Source: a virus. From it: a stretch of DNA of 21,264 nt. The stretch is from the UHGV virus genome UHGV-0381259; one strand, written 5' to 3'. The translations under genes and the position numbers were made by a program. A model generated the notes under the pieces. The model saw only the letters and a program-made list of their open reading frames with translations, was not told the DNA's origin and searched no databases. Shown here in pieces: positions 3-18,329 of the stretch. Position 1 is the stretch's first letter. Every line of letters begins with the position of its first letter.

Positions 3-179
3 TTTTTGGAGTCTTTGAAGCTCCAGCGCATTGATTTTTTTCTTAAGCTTGTAGCGGCTAGTGAGTGTAGTGATGAAGAGAAGGGGCTGGCTCTGCAGTG
101 GGTTTCTGAATTGACTGATGAACTCATGGCAAAAATCAGAAGCCACGAATACAACCGCTCAATGGATGTCATCAGCTGA
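3..179 (+). CDS. 3' end of an upstream CDS of unknown function (partial, open at the window edge)
   Basis: Frame 3 is open from the window edge to TGA at 177-179 (...ELTDELMAKIRSHEYNRSMDVIS*); no start in window; product not recognised. Confidence 0.25.
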   Translation, partial: FLESLKLQRIDFFLKLVAASECSDEEKGLALQWVSELTDELMAKIRSHEYNRSMDVIS

Positions 180-189
180 GGTGACTTTT

Positions 190-423
190 ATGCGCATTGA
201 AATAATGATCGATAAAGAGCAGAAGATTAGCCAGTCTACCCTGGACGCCCTTAAATCCGAGCTTTACCGCAATCTGCGCCCCCTGTATCCCAAAACGGTA
301 ATCCGTATCCGTAAAGGTAGCTCTAACGGTGTGGAACTGACCGGACTGCAACTGGACGAAGAAAGAAAACAAGTGATGAAAATTATGCAGAAGGTGTGGG
401 AAGACGACAGCTGGCTGCATTAA
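190..423 (+). CDS. DinI-like small protein (DNA-damage-inducible protein I family)
   Basis: 77-aa product MRIEIMIDKEQ...LYRNLRPLYPKTVIRIRKG...VMKIMQKVWEDDSWLH resembles DinI in length and in the conserved N-terminal MRIE and C-terminal W-x-D-W motifs; GAGGTG RBS 5 nt upstream of ATG 190. The track ORF from 118 is an N-terminal over-extension. Confidence 0.75.
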   Translation: MRIEIMIDKEQKISQSTLDALKSELYRNLRPLYPKTVIRIRKGSSNGVELTGLQLDEERKQVMKIMQKVWEDDSWLH

Positions 424-557: not shown

Positions 558-581
558 GCCCGCCAGAACTGGCGGGCTTTT
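558..581 (+). terminator. Rho-independent terminator-like hairpin
   Basis: GCCCGCC-agaact-GGCGGGC stem-loop followed directly by TTTT, downstream of the DinI-like gene. Confidence 0.5.
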
Positions 582-626
582 GCGTAGATCATGCAGGTGC
601 ATGAAAACCACTACATAAAGCGGGCA

Positions 627-645
627 GGCGTGGCGGGGATACGAG
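627..645. other. Candidate cos (cohesive-end) sequence of the P2-like phage
   Basis: GGCGTGGCGGGGATACGAG resembles, from memory, the 19-nt cohesive ends of P2/186 (GGCG[A/T]GGCGGGGAAAGCA-); sits in a non-coding gap. Recalled consensus, not verified. Confidence 0.25.
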
Positions 646-715
646 CGCGCGCAAATATGGAAATTAGCTGCGTTTTGTTATATATAGGAGAGATATTAAA
701 AGGGTAGGCACCACT

Positions 716-1240
716 ATGACTGTTTTACACCTTGTAGCAGACCACCTTGTTAAGCAGGCTAATACAACCCATAGAAAGGGGGAGGTGCACGCAATATTAG
801 CAGATGCATATGGTCGTTCTGCTTTTAATCGGTATTATTATGCTTGTTTTCTTAACGTCCGTGAGTTTGTTTCAACTATTGATTCCAATTGGGGCAAGGT
901 CAAGCATGCAGATGTTCCAAAATTATTACGTGATAGTGTAAGTAGAAAGATAGAAGTTGAGCTCCAAAAATCAGAAAAAATTGGCGATATAACTTTATGT
1001 GAATATAAATCTAAAAAGAGCTTAATACGTACTTCACTGAACAATATGGCTTCAACTATGGCATTGGCATATACAATTAGGGGAGTTGTTGATTATGAGC
1101 CGGAAATTGAGATGATATTCTGTAATGGCAGTTTTTCGATTAATAAAACATCAGTGGCTTCGGCTAAGGGGTGGCTACAAACCATTAATTCAGAAAGATC
1201 GAAGGTTACCAGAATTATGAAGGAGATTGGCTTTGTCTAA
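716..1240 (+). CDS. Hypothetical protein, 174 aa, first gene of AT-rich cargo cassette
   Basis: Clean ATG ORF with purine-rich RBS (AAAGGGTAGG) upstream; AT-rich codon usage unlike the phage late genes; no recognisable catalytic motif. Confidence 0.6.
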   Translation: MTVLHLVADHLVKQANTTHRKGEVHAILADAYGRSAFNRYYYACFLNVREFVSTIDSNWGKVKHADVPKLLRDSVSRKIEVELQKSEKIGDITLCEYKSKKSLIRTSLNNMASTMALAYTIRGVVDYEPEIEMIFCNGSFSINKTSVASAKGWLQTINSERSKVTRIMKEIGFV

Positions 1241-1970
1241 CCAGAAAATATTATCAGAATTGTTGGTAAAATTCCCGTTCATAAAAGTTAAAGATGTAAC
1301 AGATTTTATGGATACAATTCTGTTGATCATCCCAATTAACAAAATAGTACCATTGTCTGCTTCGAATAGTATAACAAAACGCCAGATATCTTTATTGGTG
1401 AAACGAATAACAGAAAAGCTAAATGTAAGAGTGTTGATTAGTTACTCACCATTTTCAGATAAAGACAATATTGAAGCGGCTTTAGTGGCGTTAGCGAGAA
1501 GTAATTTTAAAAAAGGGAAGATATCTGATTTGAATTTATCTTTCTTTGATTCGCAAAACGCAGTGCTTTATGTCTTTTGTAAAAACCTTACATTATCAGA
1601 ACGCGAGAAGTGGGAGTCGTTAGTTGTAGGGATATTAAACGGTTTTAATATAAAAGTGACTTCATTTGTATATGAGGCTAAAAATAATCCTGAACCTACA
1701 ATGATGGTTATTTTAAGAGCGGCAAAAAAATGTCAGCCCTTTGATCTTCCAAGATTGTTCAGTCAACTTGATAATGGCGATTATCATATTGAATCACTTG
1801 ATTGGCTGAATGGGAAGCTAGACAACTTACGTAAGAAAGGATTTTTATTAAGAAGCCATGACGGAACTTATAGAATGACATTGTCAGGGTTAGAAATAGT
1901 TCCAGTGACTAAATCTAGGCAAAGTTCTGATATAGAGAGGGTCCTTTATCTTGCACGCAAACATCTATAG
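1227..1970 (+). CDS. Hypothetical protein, about 247 aa, second gene of cargo cassette (start uncertain)
   Basis: ORF overlaps the stop of the previous gene, suggesting translational coupling; track start is TTG at 1227, first in-frame ATG near 1305. Contains VRVLISYSPFSDKD and LTLSEREKWESL motifs (see findings). Confidence 0.55.
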   Translation: MALSNQKILSELLVKFPFIKVKDVTDFMDTILLIIPINKIVPLSASNSITKRQISLLVKRITEKLNVRVLISYSPFSDKDNIEAALVALARSNFKKGKISDLNLSFFDSQNAVLYVFCKNLTLSEREKWESLVVGILNGFNIKVTSFVYEAKNNPEPTMMVILRAAKKCQPFDLPRLFSQLDNGDYHIESLDWLNGKLDNLRKKGFLLRSHDGTYRMTLSGLEIVPVTKSRQSSDIERVLYLARKHL

Positions 1971-2046
1971 TGGTATATTCGCGTTGGTAGTGGCGTTCAC
2001 GAGAGTATGCATCATGCTCATTTGTGAAGGTCGCGGACAGAATGTG

Positions 2047-2097
2047 CGCCTGCGAATCAGCAGTCGTTCCTTCGAAACGTCTGCTGATTCGCAGGCG
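2047..2097 (+). ncRNA. Candidate structured RNA element: perfect 17-bp inverted repeat hairpin upstream of the RT (possible retron msd-like stem)
   Basis: CGCCTGCGAATCAGCAG (2047-2063) pairs perfectly with CTGCTGATTCGCAGGCG (2081-2097); 17-nt loop; no U-tract after the stem; 45 bp upstream of the RT start codon. Confidence 0.3.
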
Positions 2098-2141
2098 TCA
2101 TCAACGAAAGTTTTCATCAGCTTTGCTTAAGGATTGACCTT

Positions 2142-3119
2142 ATGAAAACGCCACTACCCTTATTTTTCACATTCACTGATGCCGAACAGTTTCTTAAGGC
2201 GTTGAGCACACCGCTGAGAGATAGATATTCTGCGGAACTTATTCGACTACAAGGCCTCAGGCTTCCCCCATTAGTTTCTTGGAGTATCTTGTCTGTTGCC
2301 ATTGGCGTAAGCCCACAATTTATTACTTCGTTAATTAAGAATAAGTCAAAATACTATCGTGTTTTTTCTATTTCCAAAGGAAGAGGAAAGAAAAAAAGAA
2401 TTATTGAAGCACCCAAGGTTAGTATAAAAATCATTCAGTCTTGGGTCGCTCATCATTTAAGCATTAATCATAGTCTTGGCATAAGTGAAAATGCATATGC
2501 TTTTATCCCAGGTAAGAATGGGATATATGAAGCTGCAAGTAAACATTGTGGTGCAAAATGGATCCTGTCTATTGATTTAAGAGATTTTTTCCATACGATC
2601 ACTTCAGATATAGTGATTTCAACATTAGTTGAAATCGGATATAGAGCCGATCAGGCTGCTAAATTGAGTGAATTACTTACCTTGAATCAGAGACTTCCGC
2701 AAGGTGCGCCAAGTAGCCCTGTTATCTCAAATTTAGTATTTAGGTCAACTGACTTAAAGATTAATGAGTTGATTTCTAATACGGGTATTAAATATACTAG
2801 ATATGCTGATGATTTGACCTTCTCCGGTGATGATGAAACATTTGATATCGAGGAACTTAAAGATAATGTTGTAGAGTTGTTACTATCTGATAATTGGGTT
2901 GTGGCTGAGGAAAAACTCAGAATAGCTAGGATTCCTAATAGATTAAAAGTACATGGTTTTCTAGTTCATGAAAATAAACCTAGATTGACTAAAGGCTATC
3001 GAAATAAAATTAGAGCATATAAACATTTATTGAGGACTGGGAAAATAGTTGAGAAGGATTTTGATAAAATTAAAGGGCATGTTAACTATAGTGAATATAT
3101 TGATAGATTGAATGAGTAA
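2142..3119 (+). CDS. Reverse transcriptase, retron-type (325 aa, RT core only)
   Basis: RT motifs in the ORF: ILSIDLRDFFHTI, LPQGAPSSPVISNLVF, YTRYADDLTFSG (YADD catalytic box), KVHGFLV; size and motif spacing match compact retron RTs such as Ec86 (from memory). AAGGA RBS 8 nt upstream. Confidence 0.9.
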   Translation: MKTPLPLFFTFTDAEQFLKALSTPLRDRYSAELIRLQGLRLPPLVSWSILSVAIGVSPQFITSLIKNKSKYYRVFSISKGRGKKKRIIEAPKVSIKIIQSWVAHHLSINHSLGISENAYAFIPGKNGIYEAASKHCGAKWILSIDLRDFFHTITSDIVISTLVEIGYRADQAAKLSELLTLNQRLPQGAPSSPVISNLVFRSTDLKINELISNTGIKYTRYADDLTFSGDDETFDIEELKDNVVELLLSDNWVVAEEKLRIARIPNRLKVHGFLVHENKPRLTKGYRNKIRAYKHLLRTGKIVEKDFDKIKGHVNYSEYIDRLNE

Positions 3120-3139
3120 GGGCCTAGCCCTTACTCATT
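3111..3139. terminator. Palindromic hairpin between the convergent RT and Q genes (putative bidirectional terminator)
   Basis: AATGAGTAAGGGC-cta-GCCCTTACTCATT, a perfect 13-bp inverted repeat; the RT stop (3117-3119) and Q stop (3139-3141, minus) both lie in or at the stem. Confidence 0.45.
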
Positions 3140-4170
3140 TAATTTAATGTGTATATTCCAAAGGATATGATTTTATCTCCTATCCAGTTATTTAACTCTT
3201 CTAGTCTTCTCTGTAATGGTATTAACTCATTCCTCACAAAAACAAGGCTTGCCTTCTCCACATCCCCAAAACCCCCAACATTATTAGGCATTATCCCCAT
3301 CATTTGTGGGGGTACACGATGCGCCGCCATCATGTCGTCCCGGCTTACGTTCTTGATGTTCAGAAACTCATCCTTCGCCGCGACTTCTGATAACGGGATA
3401 ATCTGAAGTCCGTCCTTTTTGCCGTTAGGAGAGTACATAAACAGATTGCGGAAGTTACCTGGTCCTTTGGCGCTTTTCATTGCATTGCGGAGGTTGTTCA
3501 CATCCTCCTGGTTTTGTGCGGCGTCGGTCATGTACATGATGAAGCCTGCATGACTGCCGTTGATGTAATACTTCCGGCGGAACAGCGTGGCGGACTCGTT
3601 GAGCAGGGCTGACGGAATGGCAGAAAGATAACCGGGCAGGCCGTAGATCTCCTGGTTGATGTCCGGTTCCATCAGATGAAAAATGCTGCCTTTCGTGAAC
3701 TGATACGGCTGGGTTGTCATACCGTATTGCACAAACCAGTAGGTATCCAGGTCTAACCCGCGTCGGGTGTATTTTGCCAGAGCAGGCTCAAGGGCGATAA
3801 CTTCACCAAACCGGTTCGTGCGTTTCTCCAGGTAGGCGTTACCAAATACCAGATAGTCCTGCACAAAACGTGAAAAAGCCTGTTGGCTGAGCAGCGGGTG
3901 AGGGATGTAGGTGCTGGTCAGAATGTTGCATTTCACCGCAATCGGTGAGCTGTGATGCACGGCGGCGCGGAAGGTTCGCGCCAGTCCGTCAAAGCTGACG
4001 GGAGGCTCATACCAGCGATCTGTCTGTACGCATTCCACATAGTCCAGCAGTTCGCGGCGGTCAAGTACTGGAATGGGATCACCGAAGCTGAAAGCCTCAG
4101 CCGTTGGAGCGTTGCCTGGTTTTGTGTTGTGATCAACCTTTACCAGTTTGATGTTTTTATGTTTGCTCAT
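3139..4170 (-). CDS. Q: Portal vertex protein Q (P2 gpQ family)
   Basis: 343-aa product with strong similarity to P2 gpQ as recalled (PVLDRR..LDYVEC...WYEPPVSF...RAAVHHSSPI...FVRNELIPLQ); correct size and position next to the terminase gene. Confidence 0.93.
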   Translation of the reverse strand: MSKHKNIKLVKVDHNTKPGNAPTAEAFSFGDPIPVLDRRELLDYVECVQTDRWYEPPVSFDGLARTFRAAVHHSSPIAVKCNILTSTYIPHPLLSQQAFSRFVQDYLVFGNAYLEKRTNRFGEVIALEPALAKYTRRGLDLDTYWFVQYGMTTQPYQFTKGSIFHLMEPDINQEIYGLPGYLSAIPSALLNESATLFRRKYYINGSHAGFIMYMTDAAQNQEDVNNLRNAMKSAKGPGNFRNLFMYSPNGKKDGLQIIPLSEVAAKDEFLNIKNVSRDDMMAAHRVPPQMMGIMPNNVGGFGDVEKASLVFVRNELIPLQRRLEELNNWIGDKIISFGIYTLN

Positions 4171-4874
4171 TCTGCCAGCTCCTCGTTAGCAAGAGGCCAT
4201 TCGCACATAAACAGCATTCCCCAGTCCTCTGCTGATAATTCTTTTTTCATATCATTCAGCCAGTTATCAGTAAACAACATTGCTCCTGATGCTACTGCAT
4301 CATCAGCGGTGAATACCATGCGGGTTACACTGTTGTTTCTGCTTAGCTTTTTATATTCCTGCCATGCCTCCGGGTTAGGGCTGGGAGTGGTGTAGTAGGT
4401 GGCGTGGTGGTGTGCGTGCAAGGACATTCCTTTGGCGAGAGTAATCATATTTCTCGGTGATTCAGCCCAGGCATACTCTGACACGTAGACATTTCCACTG
4501 AGTGCGGCGGCGTGGCACTTGAGGTCGATAAAATAAATGACCGCACCATTGGGAAACTCCAGATATGTTTTGCCAGATTTTATTTTTCCAGTGCGCGTAT
4601 AAGCTGCGGTCTGGCTTAAAAATGCTGACACATAGGCTTTGACTGCCTGCGCTGATGCGGTGCTGCAGCAGAGGAAAATCTGGTTACGCCCGGTATGCAG
4701 TGCATCGATCAGGGCCTCATAGGCAAAAAAGAAATCCGCTCCTGCCTGGCGCATTTTTGTGAGTAAACGGTTTCTACTCTTTGGGCCAGTGTTCCACTCA
4801 TACTGGTAATCAAAGAAAGTGCTATCCACCGGAAGTCCCGCGATAGTCATGAGGTTAGTTGGGATTGGGGGCAT
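4167..4874 (-). CDS. Terminase-ATPase-domain paralog (truncated gpP-like protein, about 235 aa)
   Basis: Product aligns to the N-terminal ATPase region of the adjacent gpP (FFFAYEALIDALHTGRNQIFL vs FYFAHEALIDALLTGRNQIFL; FPNGAVIYF vs LPNGATLYF; SGNVYVSEYAWA vs HGNLYLDEYFWI; LFMCEW vs LLMCEF) but has no nuclease half. Its start overlaps the P stop (TGATG) and its stop overlaps the Q start (ATGA). Confidence 0.6.
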   Translation of the reverse strand: MPPIPTNLMTIAGLPVDSTFFDYQYEWNTGPKSRNRLLTKMRQAGADFFFAYEALIDALHTGRNQIFLCCSTASAQAVKAYVSAFLSQTAAYTRTGKIKSGKTYLEFPNGAVIYFIDLKCHAAALSGNVYVSEYAWAESPRNMITLAKGMSLHAHHHATYYTTPSPNPEAWQEYKKLSRNNSVTRMVFTADDAVASGAMLFTDNWLNDMKKELSAEDWGMLFMCEWPLANEELAE

Positions 4875-6640
4875 CAAAAAATCTCCACAATATTGCTGGT
4901 ATTGGCGGACTCGCCCTGCAGCGGTTCGTTAAACAGTGCGTGCATTGTTGCCCAGGCCAGATCGGCATGGCTGGCTTCTTCGCTGCGGCTGGCTTCATAG
5001 GTCGGGCGGTTGCCGCTGGCGGTGGTGGCGCGACGGATTGCCATAAATGACTGCGCAATGTCGGTGTGCCCGGCGTCAAACTCCAGACGGCGGTGGCTGA
5101 TAATGTCGTAGGCCTTGAGTACCAGGGCGTTTTTAACGTTGGGGTTGTAGACAAACTCCCGGACGGCAGGAAAGAACGCTTTCACGTTCTCGTAAACTCC
5201 GTGACCGACACCTGTCGAGTCGATACCGATATAGGTCACGTTGTACTGTTCGGTCAGTTTTTTGATGGCGTCAGCCTGGGCGCGGAAGTCCATCCCGCGC
5301 CACTGGTGACGCTCAAGAATGCGAAACTTACCGCCTGGCACGGCTGGCGGTGCCACCACCACGCATCCGGCGCTGTCGCCGTTCTGCGTACCTTTTGCCG
5401 GGTCATAACCGATCCACACTTCTCGCCAGCCAAACGGGCGCAGGGCCAGTGCATGAAAGTCGGTCCAGACTTCCCAACTGTCCACCATGCATGCCTGCAG
5501 CTCGCTGAGCGGAAATACGGACGCGAGATCGTCCACGAATTCACACATCAGCAGGTTCTGGTATTCGTCCGGGCTGTATTCCATGCGCAACTGGTCAAGG
5601 TCGAACAGGTTACAGCCGCCGCGCACCGCATCTTCCACGGTGACTATCTGGCGGTATTGCCCGTCTGCACACAGCAGGCCTGGAGCCAGATTGCTGTGGG
5701 ACAGGTCGATGTCCACCTTGTCGGCTTTATTGCGCCCACGGTTGAATAGCGCACCGGACCAGAACGGATAAGCACTGTGTGTCAGGCTGGATGGCGTGGA
5801 AAAATAGGTTTGTCGCCATTTTTTGTGAATAGCCATACCGGAAGCCACTTTGCGCAGCTCCTGGAATTTCGGTATCCAGAAATATTCATCCAGATACAGG
5901 TTTCCGTGGTAACTCTGGGCCGTGCGGGCATTGGTGCCGAGGAAATACAGTGTGGCCCCGTTGGGAAGCACCATCGGATCGCCTTTCAGCTCCACTTCCA
6001 CTTCTTTGGCGAAGTCGATGATGTACTGCTTAAAGACGTGGGCCTGTGCCTTGCTGGCGGAAAGGAAAATCTGGTTACGTCCGGTAAGCAGAGCGTCAAT
6101 CAGGGCTTCATGGGCAAAGTAAAAGGTCGCGCCGATCTGGCGTGACTTCAGCAGGTTGCGGATGCGGTTGGTTTTTCCGGCTTCCCACCAGTGGCGCTGG
6201 TAGTTGAACATGGAGGAATGGAAGATTTCTTCCAGCTTCTCAATCTGCTCATCGGTGAAAACATTCTTTTCCGGCTGACGGCGCGGGCCTTTGTTGCGGT
6301 TGGCGACGTTAGGGTTTAAGTCGACTTCGTTGCCGCCATTGTTAAACTTGCCGATCCGCGCGTGGCGTTCCGACTGGCGCGCCAGCAGGTCAATCTCTTT
6401 GAAATCTTTCCCTTCTTTGTGCTCCTTCATAATGAGCTGGCAGTAGCGTGCGGCGGTGGTGAGCTGCATCTGATCCAGCGGCCCATAGTCACCCCACTTG
6501 TCGCGTTTCTTCCAGCTGTGAACGGTTGCAACTTTCTCGCCCAGCATTTCAGCAATGCGGGCTACACGGTATCCCTGAAAGTACAGCAGCATGGCCTGCC
6601 GACGGGGATCGAGATCTGCGGGTGTCAGTGTGGTGTTCAT
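4874..6640 (-). CDS. P: Terminase large (ATPase) subunit P (P2 gpP family)
   Basis: 588-aa product matching P2 gpP in length and sequence character; divergent from the O gene across the late promoter region. Confidence 0.93.
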   Translation of the reverse strand: MNTTLTPADLDPRRQAMLLYFQGYRVARIAEMLGEKVATVHSWKKRDKWGDYGPLDQMQLTTAARYCQLIMKEHKEGKDFKEIDLLARQSERHARIGKFNNGGNEVDLNPNVANRNKGPRRQPEKNVFTDEQIEKLEEIFHSSMFNYQRHWWEAGKTNRIRNLLKSRQIGATFYFAHEALIDALLTGRNQIFLSASKAQAHVFKQYIIDFAKEVEVELKGDPMVLPNGATLYFLGTNARTAQSYHGNLYLDEYFWIPKFQELRKVASGMAIHKKWRQTYFSTPSSLTHSAYPFWSGALFNRGRNKADKVDIDLSHSNLAPGLLCADGQYRQIVTVEDAVRGGCNLFDLDQLRMEYSPDEYQNLLMCEFVDDLASVFPLSELQACMVDSWEVWTDFHALALRPFGWREVWIGYDPAKGTQNGDSAGCVVVAPPAVPGGKFRILERHQWRGMDFRAQADAIKKLTEQYNVTYIGIDSTGVGHGVYENVKAFFPAVREFVYNPNVKNALVLKAYDIISHRRLEFDAGHTDIAQSFMAIRRATTASGNRPTYEASRSEEASHADLAWATMHALFNEPLQGESANTSNIVEIF

Positions 6641-14487: not shown

Positions 14488-15085
14488 TCTGCTGCCACCG
14501 GGTTCAACTTCACTGGAGCGCCGACTGGCGCAAACCTGTAGCGGGATTTCTGATTTGCAGGTGCCGCTGCGTGACTTGTGGAATCCGGCTACCTGTCCGG
14601 TCAGCTTCCTGCCTTATCTCGCCTGGGCGTTCTCTGTGGATCGCTGGGATGAGGGCTGGACAGAAAGCGTCAAACGCCAGGTAGTGAAGGATGCTTTTTA
14701 TATTCATCAGCATAAAGGAACCACCAGTGCCGTGCGGCGGGTGGTGGAACCGTTCGGATTCCTGATCCGCATTATTGAGTGGTGGCAGACCGGAGAAACA
14801 CCGGGCACGTTTCGCCTGGATATCGGCGTGCAGGACCAGGGCATCACTGAAGATACCTATCTGGAACTTGAGCGACTGATAAGCGATGCCAAACCATGTA
14901 GCCGCCACATGATCGGTATGTCCATCAATCTGCAGACCAGCGGCCCGCATTGGGTGGGAGCCGCCAGCTATCTTGGCGAAGAAATCACGATCTATCCGTA
15001 TATCAACGAAACGATTATTTCCGGTGGCACCGCGCATGAAGGCGGGGCGGTCCATGTTATTGACACAATGAGAGTGAATCCATGA
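14480..15085 (+). CDS. I: Baseplate/tail-fibre attachment protein I (gpI family)
   Basis: 201-aa ORF overlapping the J stop and H start, in the P2 I position. Confidence 0.85.
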   Translation: MNSLLPPGSTSLERRLAQTCSGISDLQVPLRDLWNPATCPVSFLPYLAWAFSVDRWDEGWTESVKRQVVKDAFYIHQHKGTTSAVRRVVEPFGFLIRIIEWWQTGETPGTFRLDIGVQDQGITEDTYLELERLISDAKPCSRHMIGMSINLQTSGPHWVGAASYLGEEITIYPYINETIISGGTAHEGGAVHVIDTMRVNP

Positions 15086-16473
15086 GCACAAAATTTTATA
15101 CCCTGCTGACGGATATTGGCGCGGCGAAACTTGCCAGCGCCGCCGCGCTCGGTGTGCCGCTAAAAATTACCCATATGGCGGTGGGCGATGGCGGTGGAGT
15201 ATTGCCAACGCCGGACGCAAAGCAGACGGCACTGGTAAATGAGAAACGCCGGGCTGCGCTGAATATGCTTTATATCGACCCGCAGAACAGCAGCCAGATT
15301 ATTGCCGAACAGGTGATCCCTGAAAACGAGGGCGGTTGGTGGATACGTGAAGTGGGCTTGTTTGATGAGTCCGGGGCATTGATTGCCGTGGGCAACTGCC
15401 CGGAAAGCTATAAGCCGCAACTGGCTGAAGGTAGCGGGCGCACTCAGACCGTGCGCATGGTGCTGATTACCAGCAGCACGGACAATATCACCCTGAAAAT
15501 CGACCCTGCTGTAGTGCTGGCAACCCGCAAGTATGTGGATGACAAGGCACTGGAGCTGAAGGTGTACGCGGATGATCAGATGGCAAAACATCTTGCCGCA
15601 CCGGACCCGCATTCACAGTACGCGCCAAAAGCCAGCCCGACATTTACCGGAACCCCCAAAGCGCCGACGCCAGCGGCGGGGAATAATACCACGCAACTTG
15701 CGACCACCGCGTTTGTTCAGGCGGCACTGACAGCCCTGATTAATGGTGCGCCAGCCACGCTGGACACGCTGAAAGAAATAGCCGCAGCCATTAACAATGA
15801 TCCGAATTTCAGTACCACCATTAACAATGCGCTGGCACTAAAAGCACCGTTGTCGAGTCCGGCACTCACCGGAACGCCAACAGCCCCCACGGCGGCGCAG
15901 TCGGTCAACAATACACAGATTGCCACTACGGCTTTTGTGAAATCGGCGATTGCAGGAATGGTGGGTTCTGCACCTGCTGCACTGGATACACTGAACGAAC
16001 TGGCGGCGGCACTGGGGAATGATCCGAACTTTGCCACGACAATGCTTAATGCGCTGGCAGGTAAACAACCGCTGGACAATACGCTTACCAATTTGAGTGG
16101 GAAGGATGTTGCCGGTCTTCTTGCATACCTTCAATTGGGAGAAGCGGCGAAACGGGATGTTGGCTCAGGGGCGGGACAAGTTCCTGATATGAGTAGTTTT
16201 CAGTCAGGTGGCGGGTGGTTTAAGTTGCCGAGTGGATATGTTATTCAGGCTTTCGAGGCGTCTTTTGATTCTAACGGGCTATATATCAATTTCCCTATAC
16301 CATTTCCGAGTAGCGTTATTGCTATTGTGCCAGGCGTTTTAATGTCAACGACTGCCTCTCCATCACAACAATTTCCATCAATACAATGTGACGTCAATGA
16401 TCTGACCCGTTTTTTTGCTAAATACAATATGGGTGGAATGAATGCTTCATATTTTATTGCTATAGGAAAATAA
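15082..16473 (+). CDS. H: Tail fibre protein H (constant N-terminal part plus a C-terminal variable tip encoded inside the invertible segment)
   Basis: N-terminus MSTKFYTLLTDIGAAKLASAAALGVPLKITHMAVGDGGG is the conserved P2 H / Mu S type; the C-terminal ~110 aa after LGEAAKR lie past the left crossover site and have a diverged homolog on the opposite strand at 17332-17682. Confidence 0.9.
   Translation: MSTKFYTLLTDIGAAKLASAAALGVPLKITHMAVGDGGGVLPTPDAKQTALVNEKRRAALNMLYIDPQNSSQIIAEQVIPENEGGWWIREVGLFDESGALIAVGNCPESYKPQLAEGSGRTQTVRMVLITSSTDNITLKIDPAVVLATRKYVDDKALELKVYADDQMAKHLAAPDPHSQYAPKASPTFTGTPKAPTPAAGNNTTQLATTAFVQAALTALINGAPATLDTLKEIAAAINNDPNFSTTINNALALKAPLSSPALTGTPTAPTAAQSVNNTQIATTAFVKSAIAGMVGSAPAALDTLNELAAALGNDPNFATTMLNALAGKQPLDNTLTNLSGKDVAGLLAYLQLGEAAKRDVGSGAGQVPDMSSFQSGGGWFKLPSGYVIQAFEASFDSNGLYINFPIPFPSSVIAIVPGVLMSTTASPSQQFPSIQCDVNDLTRFFAKYNMGGMNASYFIAIGK
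15634..16074 (+). repeat. Intragenic tandem duplication (two ~74-codon units) within tail fibre gene H
   Basis: Consecutive protein units ...TGTPKAPTPAAGNNTTQLATTAFVQAALTALINGAPATLDTLKEIAAAINNDPNFSTTINNALALKAPL and ...TGTPTAPTAAQSVNNTQIATTAFVKSAIAGMVGSAPAALDTLNELAAALGNDPNFATTMLNALAGKQPL. Confidence 0.7.
16118..16143. other. Candidate left crossover site (hix/gix-like) of the invertible segment
   Basis: TTCTTGCATACC-TT-CAATTGGGAGAA; outer half-site resembles the recalled hix/gix consensus TTCTTGAAAACC; inner half-site TTGGGAGAA is the inverted copy of the inner half of the right site. Confidence 0.45.
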
Positions 16474-16475
16474 CC

Positions 16476-16898
16476 ATGTATTTATTTTCGCCAAGCACAT
16501 TGGGTTTTTATCCCATCGAGATGAAAGAAGAATACCTTACCAATGGTTCATTACCATCTGATGTTATAGAGGTTTCTGATAGCGTCAGAAATGAATATAA
16601 CTTTGCGCCACCTGAAGGCAAACAGCTAAGTTCCAGCCAAAATATGCCAGTCTGGATTGATATTCCACCGGCGACACGTGAAGAGTTGATTGCTGCTGCC
16701 GAAAAAGAACGCCAGAAACTACTGGCCCATGCTGACGCTGTTATGCTGGACTGGCGAACTGAACTGATGCTGGGTGAAATCAGCGACGCCAACAAAGCTA
16801 AGCTGTCGGCGTGGCTGGCCTATAAAAATGAAGTTAAGTCGGCTGATGTGACAACTGACCCGGAGCGTGTTAACTGGCCTGTTCCCCCGGAGGCGTAG
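16476..16898 (+). CDS. G: Tail fibre assembly chaperone G (Tfa family), currently expressed orientation
   Basis: 140-aa product with the conserved Tfa C-terminal pattern (IAAAEKERQKLL...W.PVPPEA); directly follows H. Confidence 0.85.
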   Translation: MYLFSPSTLGFYPIEMKEEYLTNGSLPSDVIEVSDSVRNEYNFAPPEGKQLSSSQNMPVWIDIPPATREELIAAAEKERQKLLAHADAVMLDWRTELMLGEISDANKAKLSAWLAYKNEVKSADVTTDPERVNWPVPPEA

Positions 16899-17310
16899 GC
16901 CATTCAATATCTGGCGCACCGGAAGTATCGACCAGTTCCAGTGCGTCCAGATAATCCAGCCACAAATTATATTGCGCCAGTTCCTCACCTTTCAGACGAC
17001 CAATAGCCGCTTTACCAGGCCATTGTTTACTGTTCATATAATCGTTGGCCTGATTAATCAGTTGCTGCTTTTCAAGTTCGGCTGCAGCAATCTGTTCCTC
17101 ATGTGTTGGTGGTGGAATTTCAGTCCATGCAGGAAAACTATTTTCTCCAGCGATACGGATTTTTCCTTTCGGCGGTAATCCGGAAAACTCAATATACACT
17201 TGCTCATCAACTTCAACAGCATCATCTGGCCATGAGTCAGCTTGAGTGTAATCCTCTTTCATCTCCAGCGGATAGAAAGAGTTTGTAGTCGCGGAATATA
17301 TGTAATTCAT
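16870..17310 (-). CDS. Alternative tail fibre assembly chaperone G' (Tfa family), silent orientation
   Basis: 146-aa minus-strand product homologous to G (FYPLEMKEDY...IAAAELEKQQL...WPTPPGE); its 3' end overlaps the 3' end of G by about 29 bp. Confidence 0.8.
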   Translation of the reverse strand: MNYIYSATTNSFYPLEMKEDYTQADSWPDDAVEVDEQVYIEFSGLPPKGKIRIAGENSFPAWTEIPPPTHEEQIAAAELEKQQLINQANDYMNSKQWPGKAAIGRLKGEELAQYNLWLDYLDALELVDTSGAPDIEWPTPPGEQAS

Positions 17311-17331
17311 TTTTCACTCCATATAGCTAAA

Positions 17332-17682
17332 TTAACAGCCTAACGCTAAAAATGAAGCGCCGAGGCCAGGAGTACTGGCTCTGGATATAAATTTAACCGG
17401 GTCGGGACTAAAACCTGCACAGGCAATATAACCAACAGCCCCGCTATCTGGTGTGTAGTCTTGTGAGACCAAAACACGCAGACATCTGTTTGGAAATGCA
17501 ATCGGGAAATGGGTTACTACATCCTGTGCAATGCCTGGTGCGCCGATTGAGCCCCACTGAAGAATAAAACCTGATGGAAATTTTTGATATCCAGTACCTG
17601 AAACAGAAAGCGTGAAGCTACCCATATCAGGTATCTGATTCGCCCCTGTCCCTACATTCCTTTTAGCCGCTTCTCCCAAACC
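17332..17682 (-). CDS. Alternative tail-fibre C-terminal tip Hv' (no own start; fused to H constant part after inversion)
   Basis: Minus-strand frame encodes ...[22 protein letters not shown]...FPSGFILQ...FPIAFP..., parallel to the H tip (LGEAAKRDVGSGAGQVPDMSSF...LPSGYVIQ...FPIPFP); the track ORF extension to 17781 is outside the segment and not a real N-terminus. Confidence 0.7.
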
Positions 17683-17696
17683 AACGTTTAAGAAAA
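17671..17696. other. Candidate right crossover site (hix/gix-like) of the invertible segment
   Basis: TTCTCCCAAACC-AA-CGTTTAAGAAAA closely resembles the recalled Hin/Gin site consensus TTCTTGAAAACC-AA-GGTTTTTGATAA. Confidence 0.5.
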
Positions 17697-17750
17697 TGTA
17701 GTTTTCCCCCCTAGCTGGCATCATTTGGGCTTTTGCATGAGGGAAAACAA

Positions 17751-18329
17751 ATGCAGGTTGGCTATGTGCGCGTATCAACAAATGAACAAAATACCGCGCT
17801 ACAGCGTGACGCGCTGGAACGGTCGGGATGTGAGCTAATTTTCGAGGATAAAATCAGCGGTAAATCGACAAACAGGCCAAGGTTAAATCGCGCACTCAGG
17901 CAACTTAATGCCGGTGATACTCTCGTTGTCTGGAAGCTCGACAGGCTCGGGCGTAGCATGCGCCATCTTGTCTCTATGACTGAAGAGCTTCGCCAGCGAG
18001 GGGTTAATTTCAGAAGCCTGACCGACAGTATTGATACCTCAACCCCGATGGGGCGATTTTTCTTTCACATCATGGGCGCTCTTGCAGAAATGGAACGCGA
18101 GTTAATCGTCGAACGAACCCGCGCCGGGCTGGATGCAGCCCGGGCACAAGGCAGGATCGGAGGTCGTAGGCCGAAGCTGACGCCTGATGAATGGGCTCAG
18201 GCTGGCCGGTTGATTGCGGCCGGAGAATCCCGACAGCGTGTTGCACTGATTTTTGATGTGGGCATATCGACGCTGTATAAAAAATTTCCGGCGACAAATC
18301 CCGTTGTGTCAGCCACCGGCGAACCCTGA
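17751..18329 (+). CDS. Serine recombinase, DNA invertase of the Gin/Hin/Pin/Cin family
   Basis: N-terminus [22 protein letters not shown] with the catalytic Ser context (YVRVST); resolvase catalytic domain plus C-terminal HTH ([22 protein letters not shown]); about 192 aa; adjacent to the right crossover site. Confidence 0.9.

Follow-up and report, generated by a model that had tools for sequence, protein, structure and literature searches.

Positions 655-3139 of the window (the whole 21,264-nt stretch of virus genome UHGV-0381259 that was analysed) almost certainly make up a complete type IX retron that is orthologous to Retron-Sen3, Retron-Yin1 and Retron-Kva2 and that an E. coli P2-like (Peduoviridae) prophage carries as cargo in its gpA-gpQ hotspot. 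To judge from its sequence the retron is apparently intact, with all components present and the catalytic and interface residues kept. The system is already known, having been classified in 2020, when type IX retrons were defined by Mestre et al. (PMC7736814), and solved mechanistically in 2026, when three preprints described the defence phenotype, structure, triggers and RNA targets (10.64898/2026.07.14.737667, 10.64898/2026.07.14.738597, PMC13405049). The features of the locus are as follows.

627-645, no strand: G-rich cos-like block GGCGTGGCGGGGATACGAG near the end of the phage backbone (context, outside the retron)
655-715, plus strand: leader and probable native promoter region (conserved blocks; start of homology)
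716-1240, plus strand: predicted HEPN-like RNase effector (toxin), 174 aa (PADLOC HEPN_IX, PDB 36ht_I)
1233-1970, plus strand: KH1-KH2-winged-helix (WH/HTH) protein, 245 aa, TTG start (PADLOC HTH_IX, PDB 36ht_B)
1986-2158, plus strand: retron ncRNA (msr-msd), 173 nt (conservation, covariation, covariance model)
1986-1997, plus strand: a1 repeat GGTAGTGGCGTT
2003-2019, plus strand: msr stem-loop
2030-2105, plus strand: msd template
2030-2105, minus strand: predicted msDNA (msd), 76 nt, reverse complement of the template, GTTGATGACGCC...TCCGCGAC (match to Kva2 positions)
2147-2158, plus strand: a2 repeat AACGCCACTACC, within the first codons of the RT gene
2142-3119, plus strand: retron reverse transcriptase (RT), 325 aa (PADLOC RT_IX, Pfam RVT_1, PDB 36ht_A)
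3111-3139, no strand: perfect 13-bp hairpin AATGAGTAAGGGC / CTA / GCCCTTACTCATT (read directly in the sequence)

Protein-coding genes of the cassette

Three ORFs (716-1240, 174 aa; 1227-1970; 2142-3119, 325 aa) lie on the plus strand between 716 and 3119, and the GC content of the cassette (0.33-0.36) is below that of its flanks (0.50-0.60 in the late genes and 0.45-0.51 upstream), in agreement with the first-pass annotation, which had described three co-directional AT-rich genes. The order along this strand is HEPN gene, WH gene, ncRNA and RT gene, and the same layout of 174 aa, 245 aa, a gap of ~171 nt and 325-332 aa was identical in eight related loci, which were retrieved separately as contigs encoding the cassette proteins. 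In RefSeq the cassette is labelled as two hypothetical proteins and a reverse transcriptase family protein.

The product of gene 1 matched PADLOC HEPN_IX at 1.4e-52 and the HEPN chain of Retron-Kva2 (PDB 36ht_I) at 5e-67, the latter alignment covering residues 1-174 of both proteins with zero indels. A residue check against the published type IX systems found the catalytic H64 and R122, along with conserved H10, Q14, Y40-42, D56, S57, I89 and D91. By these residues gene 1 encodes a HEPN-like protein with a non-canonical split active site (H64 + R122).

The start of gene 2 is most likely TTG 1233, which gives 245 aa, so that of the gene sizes proposed earlier the 174 aa and 325 aa stand and the ~247 aa of gene 2 does not. 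This codon is preceded by AAGGAG at 1219-1224 and is also the RefSeq start, the Kva2 WH protein likewise has 245 aa, and from 1233 the gene overlaps the HEPN stop by 8 nt. The protein matched PADLOC HTH_IX (1.5e-61) and Retron-Kva2 WH (PDB 36ht_B; 3.6e-78, with an alignment reaching the C-terminal residue 245). The residues that contact the msDNA tip (D190, N193, D197, R200, K201 and R207) are kept, as are R50, Q51, K57, V237, L240 and A241; the sole change among the catalytic and contact residues checked is N54 of Kva2, a backbone contact, which is L here. By analogy with Kva2, the WH protein would be the antitoxin, bridging HEPN, RT and msDNA.

The RT is identical to WP_088551309.1 from E. 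coli MFDS1016424, an accession that Carabias et al. 2026 (10.64898/2026.07.14.737667) include among the type IX retron RTs of their Table S1. It matched Pfam RVT_1, PADLOC RT_IX (4.2e-129, 428 bits, the next model, RT_II-A, reaching only 224 bits) and Retron-Kva2 RT (PDB 36ht_A; 1.5e-145, residues 1-325), with lower similarity to the RTs of Ec86 (7e-33) and Ec78 (~1e-17). These matches place the RT in the type IX clade, with a YADD box that reads as intact. All three motifs noted before for a retron-size RT were located in gene 3, namely DLRDFF (145-150), QGAPSSP (187-193) and YADD (221-224), most of their residues being invariant in 34 homologues; T10, V56, R73, F75 and I97 are also conserved. 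In Kva2 the WH protein is bound by an N-terminal domain specific to type IX, made up of the first ~45 RT residues (10.64898/2026.07.14.738597). Since the present RT aligns with Kva2 RT from residue 1, it includes this WH-binding extension, and its earlier description as having no extra domains is not quite right.

Taken over the cassette, all three proteins align full length and essentially gapless to the Retron-Kva2 complex (PDB 36ht), and the accessory genes fit the PADLOC type IX models and not the NDT, protease or wHTH partners of other types. The proposal that the locus is a retron, with the two upstream proteins as its effector and accessory partners, is thus borne out by the type IX models and the 36ht chains.

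Retron ncRNA and predicted msDNA

The 171 nt that separate genes 2 and 3, where the GC content rises locally to ~0.46-0.49 because the ncRNA sits there, are occupied by the fourth component of the system, which the first-pass annotation did not locate. The ncRNA is bounded by 12-bp terminal inverted repeats, a1 (1986-1997) pairing with a2 (2147-2158), which overlaps the RT start. Across nine loci it was 90-98% identical, whereas the genes there shared just 60-88% at the nucleotide level, and it was 96-98% identical to its closest relatives. Compensatory changes were found in seven pairs among the nine close loci and, when the comparison was widened to 61 sequences, in 51 of 56 pairs, with 91.5% of cells paired vs 35-44% in slid controls; this larger alignment is itself fitted to the model. 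Covariance model R1 gave a full-length plus-strand match adjoining the RT start in almost all of the distant type IX loci searched. The predicted fold has an MFE of -81.3 kcal/mol (z = -8.1). Both the length and the named positions agree with the Kva2 ncRNA, and the positions also fit the descriptions of Yin1 and Sen3. By this conservation and pairing, the ncRNA is a homologue of the ncRNAs of other type IX retrons.

Candidates for the branching G lie at ncRNA positions 13-17 (e.g. G16, window 2001), at the end of a1. The published text on the Kva2 ncRNA gives C120 as the template start and G139-C173 as the 3' remnant, and assigns no role to positions 121-138 in between. A search of Rfam found no retron msr family matching the ncRNA, and Rfam 15 appears to be without a family fitting it. 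The sole matches in Rfam were spurious ones at the RT-distal hairpin and, within the RT gene, a weak one to CRISPR-DR.

In the predicted 76-nt msDNA, all the nucleotides named for Kva2 agree, both at the 5' side (dG1, dA5, dT6, dA8, dC9 and dG10) and further on (dC58, dG59, dC60, dA61, dA63, dT64, dG68, dT69 and dC76). The tip of its long stem-loop (template 2047-2097) is TCGAAGG, which corresponds to dT26..dG32 of Yin1 and Sen3, and the DNA fold was calculated at -28.8 kcal/mol (z = -8.0). Compared with the Sen3 msd, it shows only three differences over 65 nt, and two of these compensate each other. If ExoVII trims as in Kva2, the msDNA would be 71 nt long and start at dT6.

Intactness, novelty and mechanism by homology

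Homology of the cassette to copies in unrelated genomic contexts starts at ~650-657 and stops at 3120-3121, inside the 13-bp hairpin. The leader contains the blocks ATGGAAATTAG (657-667), TTTG (674-677), ATATATA (680-686), GATAT (692-696) and TAGG (705-708), which are conserved in most of the nine loci, and 655-715 is the probable native promoter region. A promoter scan upstream of the HEPN gene called no consensus sigma-70 promoter; as a weak guess, the promoter could be the TGGAAA-17 nt-TATATA pair at 658-686. At the other end, the hairpin spans the RT stop codon and abuts the stop codon of the portal gene, and it is likely a terminator common to these two convergent genes. The terminator scan did not call this RT-distal hairpin.

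It is very improbable that the locus is a type IX retron by descent persisting in the prophage as an inactive or decaying passenger, for example one that is not expressed or makes no msDNA. The lack of a consensus promoter upstream and the rarity of the cassette, found in three of 5426 complete E. coli genomes, would fit such a state, and decay does occur in the family, as seen in the frameshifted WH gene of the Morganella relative L084. Here, however, the three ORFs are full length with all catalytic and nearly all contact residues kept, and the ncRNA is intact and nearly identical to that of the closest relatives. Sen3 and Kva2 function from their native upstream regions, where conserved blocks are present in most copies, and that the HEPN toxin and the antitoxin set have both stayed intact speaks for a system kept functional.

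An undescribed retron-like or RT-based antiphage system, with accessory proteins in no known effector class, was the reading first given to the cassette and is now highly improbable. It would be favoured by Pfam, which holds no family for either upstream protein, by the "hypothetical" names in RefSeq and by the lack of a matching Rfam ncRNA model; a search confined to these three resources comes up empty because all of them are blank on the accessory proteins or the ncRNA. However, the PADLOC type IX matches range from 1e-52 to 1e-129, the 36ht structure matches all three proteins, and the 2020 classification, the 2026 mechanistic papers and the listing of the exact accession as type IX leave the claim refuted by homology. 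The retron of another type (II-A or III-A), or the AbiE-like toxin-antitoxin pair merely neighbouring an RT, that might be read from the RT_II-A and RT_III-A scores (6e-67 to 1e-63) and a marginal AbiEi match of gene 2 in PADLOC (E = 0.0029) can be dismissed, given the RT_IX score of 428 bits vs 224, the fit of the accessory genes to the IX models, an AbiEi match rejected as not significant (no significant stretch) and an ncRNA model, derived from type IX loci, whose matches extend to distant loci of that type.

As a type IX retron whose type was classified in 2020, which PADLOC detects, whose structure is solved and whose exact RT accession is published, the locus has little discovery value. 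The practical gain lies in a correct annotation in place of the RefSeq hypothetical labels and in precise positions for the ncRNA, for the msDNA as predicted and for the start of gene 2, now corrected. The case also shows how known defence systems are taken for novel ones when names are drawn from Pfam, Rfam and RefSeq only.

Among the described relatives, Retron-Sen3 of Salmonella enterica subsp. arizonae (10.64898/2026.07.14.737667) has the same operon order, protein lengths and numbering as the present copy (HEPN H64/R122; WH D197/R200/K201/R207; RT D223/D224) and the same 71-nt processed msDNA, here as predicted, with the tip TCGAAGG. Nucleotide identity to Sen3 was ~89.5% over the 627 window positions that lie under published primers, a sample that gives an estimate for the locus as a whole. 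Sen3 has a different host and mobile element, the present copy residing in an E. coli P2-like prophage. Retron-Kva2 of Klebsiella variicola (PDB 36ht; Hayashi et al. 2026, 10.64898/2026.07.14.738597; Hibshman et al. 2026, PMC13405049) has identical catalytic residues, a 173-nt ncRNA and a 76-nt primary msd with the same named nucleotides as predicted here, and differs in an RT of 327 aa (325 aa here) and in WH N54. A near-identical Kva2-like locus, L085, shared ~60% (HEPN), 51% (WH), 64% (RT) and 89.6% (ncRNA) identity with the present copy. More distantly, Retron-Eco7/Ec78 (type I-A) and Ec86 (type II-A) also combine a homologous retron RT with an msr-msd ncRNA. In these systems nuclease-triggered release of a caged effector leads to abortive infection, the msDNA acting as sensor and antitoxin scaffold. 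Their effectors are PtuAB or NDT, whereas type IX has a HEPN RNase with a KH-WH partner, an RT with an extra N-terminal domain and an ncRNA between the accessory genes and the RT.

By homology with these systems, the RT would prime on the branching G of the ncRNA and copy from 2105 down to 2030, yielding the 76-nt msDNA, trimmed to ~71 nt. RT-msDNA, WH and HEPN dimers would then assemble into a higher-order complex with the msDNA as scaffold, in which the msDNA and the KH/WH protein would cover the composite H64/R122 active site and keep the toxin inactive. On infection, a phage nuclease or DNA binder may cut or remodel the msDNA; the triggers reported for type IX are the PD-(D/E)XK nuclease B14T (Bas14), a lambda-Exo-like nuclease (Bas24) and the DNA-binding D5 (T5) (10.64898/2026.07.14.737667, 10.64898/2026.07.14.738597, PMC13405049). 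The freed HEPN would cut tRNA anticodon loops, so that translation stops and the infection aborts, and the lysogen, and with it the prophage, would be protected from competing phages. Abortive-infection defence needing both RT and HEPN activity was shown for Sen3 and Kva2 in the same preprints. These differ in the quaternary form reported (a ring of 8-10 units, a sheet or an asymmetric 4:3:2 assembly), in the RNA targets (tRNA only vs tRNA and rRNA, HEPN cleavage of rRNA being reported in one of the three studies) and in the triggers, so that accounts of the fine mechanism diverge even among the reference systems. The family assignment meets no contrary evidence, while msDNA production, defence range and trigger of the present copy would follow by extrapolation from homologues that are ~51-64% (L085) to ~90% (Sen3 nucleotide sample) identical.

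Prophage hotspot, distribution and mobility

P2-like prophages have a defence hotspot in the cos-proximal gpA-gpQ region (Rousset et al. 2022, PMC9122126), and the earlier placement of the cassette there is upheld by the gene map, the break in the backbone and the cargo of a related phage. The prophage map runs from integrase and CI to replication endonuclease, DinI, cassette, portal and terminase, and backbone homology to other P2-like (Peduoviridae) phages ends at ~654 and resumes in the portal gene, whose 3' end is the right neighbour of the cassette as proposed (3139-4170, minus strand, in the RefSeq annotation). In the related phage 500465-1 a TIR protein occupies the same slot. The cassette is therefore cargo of the gpA-gpQ hotspot, a variable insert with conserved backbone on either side and other cargo in related phages. 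It shares the slot next to cos with P2 old/tin and other gpA-gpQ cargo (PMC9122126), and by analogy the same prophage-borne anti-competitor role, whereas the proteins and mechanism of that cargo are unrelated to the present retron. The locus thus shows a type IX retron naturally occupying the cos-proximal P2 hotspot in E. coli, a species in which the cassette is rare.

The cos-like sequence on the left side, also pointed out at first pass, is loosely supported: a G-rich block does lie at the backbone edge, which P2-like and P4-like copies conserve and which is degenerate in the other copies, but the P2 cos 19-mer had no match within three mismatches.

No match to the cassette was found in the plasmid collection. 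A pattern scan of genome contigs with single proteins found no relatives, the patterns being too specific, and a contig scan with a 34-sequence alignment gave 313 loci, all of them distant (35-47% identity) because the species-representative genomes lack enterobacterial copies.

Two ideas beyond the assignment are put forward tentatively and would, if true, leave the identity of the system unchanged. The trigger range of this E. coli allele may differ from that of Sen3 and Kva2, or the mode of moving may be new, with exchange by recombination at cos-adjacent sequence followed by export beyond P2/P4 elements. Such movement is suggested by the copies found in P4-like satellites, at bare chromosomal sites and in islands of ICE-like type with ArdC/TrwB neighbours, all of which keep 60-140 nt of P2-like cos-proximal upstream DNA, including a progressively degenerate cos-like block.

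Assignment of the cassette to the type IX retrons

The cassette comprises three co-directional genes ending in a reverse transcriptase (RT), as the first-pass annotation had described, with a GC content of 0.33-0.36 (0.45-0.51 directly upstream, 0.50-0.60 in the phage late genes on its right), and it abuts the 3' end of the portal gene.

Features of the cassette and its right neighbour
716-1240, + strand: ORF 1, HEPN gene, 174 aa
1227-1970, + strand: ORF 2, WH gene; start corrected to TTG 1233, 245 aa
1986-2158, + strand: ncRNA, 173 nt, bracketed by the a1/a2 inverted repeat
2142-3119, + strand: ORF 3, RT gene, 325 aa
3139-4170, minus strand: portal gene, 3' end facing the cassette

Protein 3 matched Pfam RVT_1 (5e-23) and carries YADD (residues 221-224), QGAPSSP and DLRDFF motifs. 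The PADLOC defence-system HMMs placed all three proteins in one system, as HEPN_IX (protein 1, 1.4e-52), HTH_IX (protein 2, 1.5e-61) and RT_IX (protein 3, 4.2e-129, 428 bits, the runner-up RT_II-A scoring 224 bits). The same proteins aligned over their full length with the PDB 36ht chains named Retron-Kva2 HEPN (5e-67), Retron-Kva2 WH (3.6e-78) and Retron-Kva2 Reverse Transcriptase (1.5e-145), respectively, bearing out the earlier reading of a retron with two partner proteins. Mestre et al. 2020 (PMC7736814) defined type IX retrons by the combination of RT and ncRNA with a HEPN-like and a winged-helix protein, and the exact RT sequence is tabulated as type IX under “Escherichia coli MFDS1016424 WP_088551309.1” (Table S1, Carabias et al. 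2026, 10.64898/2026.07.14.737667). The cassette thus almost certainly belongs to the type IX retrons and is an unremarkable intact copy of an already known system. The first-pass annotation had proposed a possibly undescribed system, to be abandoned if homology pointed to a characterised one; since homology gives a known type IX retron, it was wrong on novelty. The useful additions are the coordinates of the ncRNA and msDNA, together with the new start assigned to gene 2.

That start rests on three observations: the Kva2 WH chain is 245 aa long and the protein 2 alignment reaches its residue 245, the RefSeq start corresponds to 1233, and AAGGAG lies at 1219-1224 ahead of the TTG. From 1233, gene 2 overlaps the HEPN stop by 8 nt. 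At the other end of the cassette, a perfect 13-bp hairpin (3111-3139) has the last RT codons and the stop codon as its left arm, its right arm lying beyond 3120-3121, where cassette copies located elsewhere cease to be homologous; the hairpin may have arisen at the junction and serve both the RT gene and the convergent portal gene as a bidirectional terminator.

The ncRNA and the predicted msDNA

Genes 2 and 3 are separated by 171 nt that are GC-richer than the genes themselves, and a perfect 12-bp inverted repeat, a1 GGTAGTGGCGTT (1986-1997) with a2 AACGCCACTACC (2147-2158), delimits an ncRNA, missed by the first-pass annotation, whose 3' arm lies in the opening codons of the RT gene. The Kva2 ncRNA is likewise 173 nt long. 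Eight related enterobacterial loci were fetched (nine sequences with the window copy), all eight with the same layout of 174 aa, 245 aa, gap and 325-332 aa. In these close loci, the conserved block is bounded precisely by the first G of a1 and the last C of a2, with nucleotide identity of 89.6-97.7% in the ncRNA and only 60-88% in the flanking genes. The few substitutions in the ncRNA were compensatory; in the msr stem-loop (2003-2019) they fall in 3 of the 7 pairs, and in the long msd stem in 4 of 25.

When the nine close sequences were used to train a covariance model, almost all of 79 distant type IX loci (RT identity 35-47%), which span many phyla, had a full-length + strand match that adjoined the RT start or overlapped it. 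In a 61-sequence alignment, which was fitted to the model and includes two stray minus-strand rows, 91.5% of cells were paired compared with 35-44% in slid controls, and compensatory changes occurred in 51 of 56 pairs, including 12 of 12 in a1/a2. The RNA fold was -81.3 kcal/mol (z = -8.1). On the minus strand of 1986-2158 the model also scored 55 bits (vs 209 bits on the + strand), a consequence of the near-palindromic long msd stem and a1/a2 repeats; the strand of a match is to be assigned by comparing scores.

The predicted msd is templated from 2105 down to 2030 (76 nt, GTTGATGACGCCTGCGAATCAGCAGACGTTTCGAAGGAACGACTGCTGATTCGCAGGCGCACATTCTGTCCGCGAC), with a predicted msDNA fold of -28.8 kcal/mol (z = -8.0). 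All nucleotides named in Kva2 agree (dG1, dA5, dT6, dA8, dC9, dG10, dC58-dA61, dA63, dT64, dG68, dT69 and dC76). Kva2-style trimming by five nt would leave 71 nt, the msDNA length given for Sen3. The predicted loop tip TCGAAGG equals Yin1/Sen3 dT26-dG32, which is contacted by WH D197, R200, K201 and R207 (2026 type IX retron preprint). The Sen3 msd, taken from a cloning primer, differed from that of the window at 3 of 65 nt, two forming a compensatory pair.

Conserved residues and probable mechanism by homology

Retron-Sen3 is the closest characterised relative, 89.5% identical where published Sen3 primers allow comparison (627 window positions); identity to the Kva2-like locus L085 was about 60% (HEPN), 51% (WH) and 64% (RT). 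All residues mutated or highlighted in three 2026 papers are kept, namely HEPN H10, Q14, Y40-42, D56, S57, H64, I89, D91 and R122, WH R50, Q51, K57, D190, N193, D197, R200, K201, R207, V237, L240 and A241, and RT T10, V56, R73, F75, I97 and Y221-D224, except WH N54, a backbone contact in the characterised system, which is L here.

According to the 2026 preprints (Carabias et al.; Hayashi et al., 10.64898/2026.07.14.738597; Hibshman et al., PMC13405049), Sen3 and Kva2 protect up to 10^5-fold against T5-like phages, Queuovirinae and others, and protection is lost with RT YADD or HEPN H64/R122 mutations or WH deletion. HEPN is toxic by itself and neutralised by WH or RT-ncRNA-WH. By cryo-EM, RT-msDNA, WH and HEPN dimers form a higher-order assembly, described for Yin1 as a ring of 8-10 modules and for Kva2 both as a sheet and as an asymmetric 4 RT : 3 WH : 2 HEPN particle; in each, KH1 and msDNA occlude the composite HEPN site. 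Freed HEPN cleaves tRNA anticodon loops, and in one study also 16S rRNA, leading to growth arrest. By homology, and with somewhat less confidence than for its classification, the window copy very probably works by a Sen3/Kva2-type mechanism, the details of which differ between preprints: HEPN would be held in an RT-msDNA/WH complex, its active site covered by KH1 and msDNA, and upon release would cut tRNA anticodon loops and arrest growth.

In the Morganella morganii relative, the WH gene is frameshifted into 62-aa and 200-aa ORFs (L084 3093-3829), while HEPN, ncRNA and RT appear intact. Since WH is the antitoxin-like counterpart of the toxic HEPN, the break is unexpected; gene decay, programmed frameshifting or an error in the assembly could account for it.

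Genomic context and other features of the prophage

The window matches the E. coli MFDS1016424 chromosome (NZ_CP106924.1) at 100% identity; there the cassette lies within a P2-like prophage, flanked on one side by the replication endonuclease and DinI-like genes and on the other by those for portal and terminase. This gene order upholds the earlier placement in a P2-like defence hotspot, the cos-proximal gpA-gpQ slot (Rousset et al. 2022, PMC9122126). Backbone homology to other Peduoviridae spans 1 to ~654 and starts again within the portal gene. In Escherichia phage 500465-1 (Wadgaonvirus), the same slot is taken up by a TIR-domain protein and a hypothetical gene (L090 5215-5643); the replication region of this closely related P2-like phage is broken by IS21/IS100-like fragments.

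Of 5426 complete E. coli genomes, only 3 contained the full cassette, and it was not found in the phage or plasmid collections searched. Relatives occupied the same P2 slot (K. variicola L083, Pantoea L088), a P4-like island (Citrobacter L082), ICE-like regions with ArdC and TrwB (L086, L087), a site adjoining SIR2 genes (L085) or bare chromosome (Morganella L084), varied locations in keeping with the reported link between type IX retrons and mobile elements (2026 preprint). In the copies outside P2-like phages (L082, L084-L087; P4-like island, ICE-like regions, chromosome), 60-140 nt upstream of the cassette (window 578-715) are kept, progressively degenerate, and include a cos-like block, GGCGTGGCGGGG; on the right side, homology stops sharply at 3120-3121. 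It looks as if the cassette moves together with cos-proximal DNA.

Other features of the window
118-423: DinI-like gene (Pfam DinI, 1.7e-22), conserved backbone directly upstream of the hotspot
4167-4877, minus strand: extra Terminase_6N ORF, 236 aa (domain match 3.2e-17)
15082-16473: tail fibre gene, Gp53-like C-terminus
16476-16898: tail fibre assembly gene
16870-17310, opposite strand to the first fibre/assembly pair: second assembly gene
17332-17781, opposite strand to that pair: second fibre C-terminus
17733-18329: serine invertase (Resolvase + HTH_7)

The DinI-like ORF has a ~37-aa N-terminal extension relative to both the Pfam domain and the RefSeq call. The 236-aa ORF, flanked by the portal gene and the full-length gene for the 588-aa terminase ATPase, appears to be a partial duplication of the large terminase subunit; it is annotated in RefSeq, and phage 500465-1 has a comparable small “terminase large subunit” ORF. 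The region 15082-18329 looks like an invertible tail-fibre cassette, a host-range switch of the Mu Gin/P1 Cin type.
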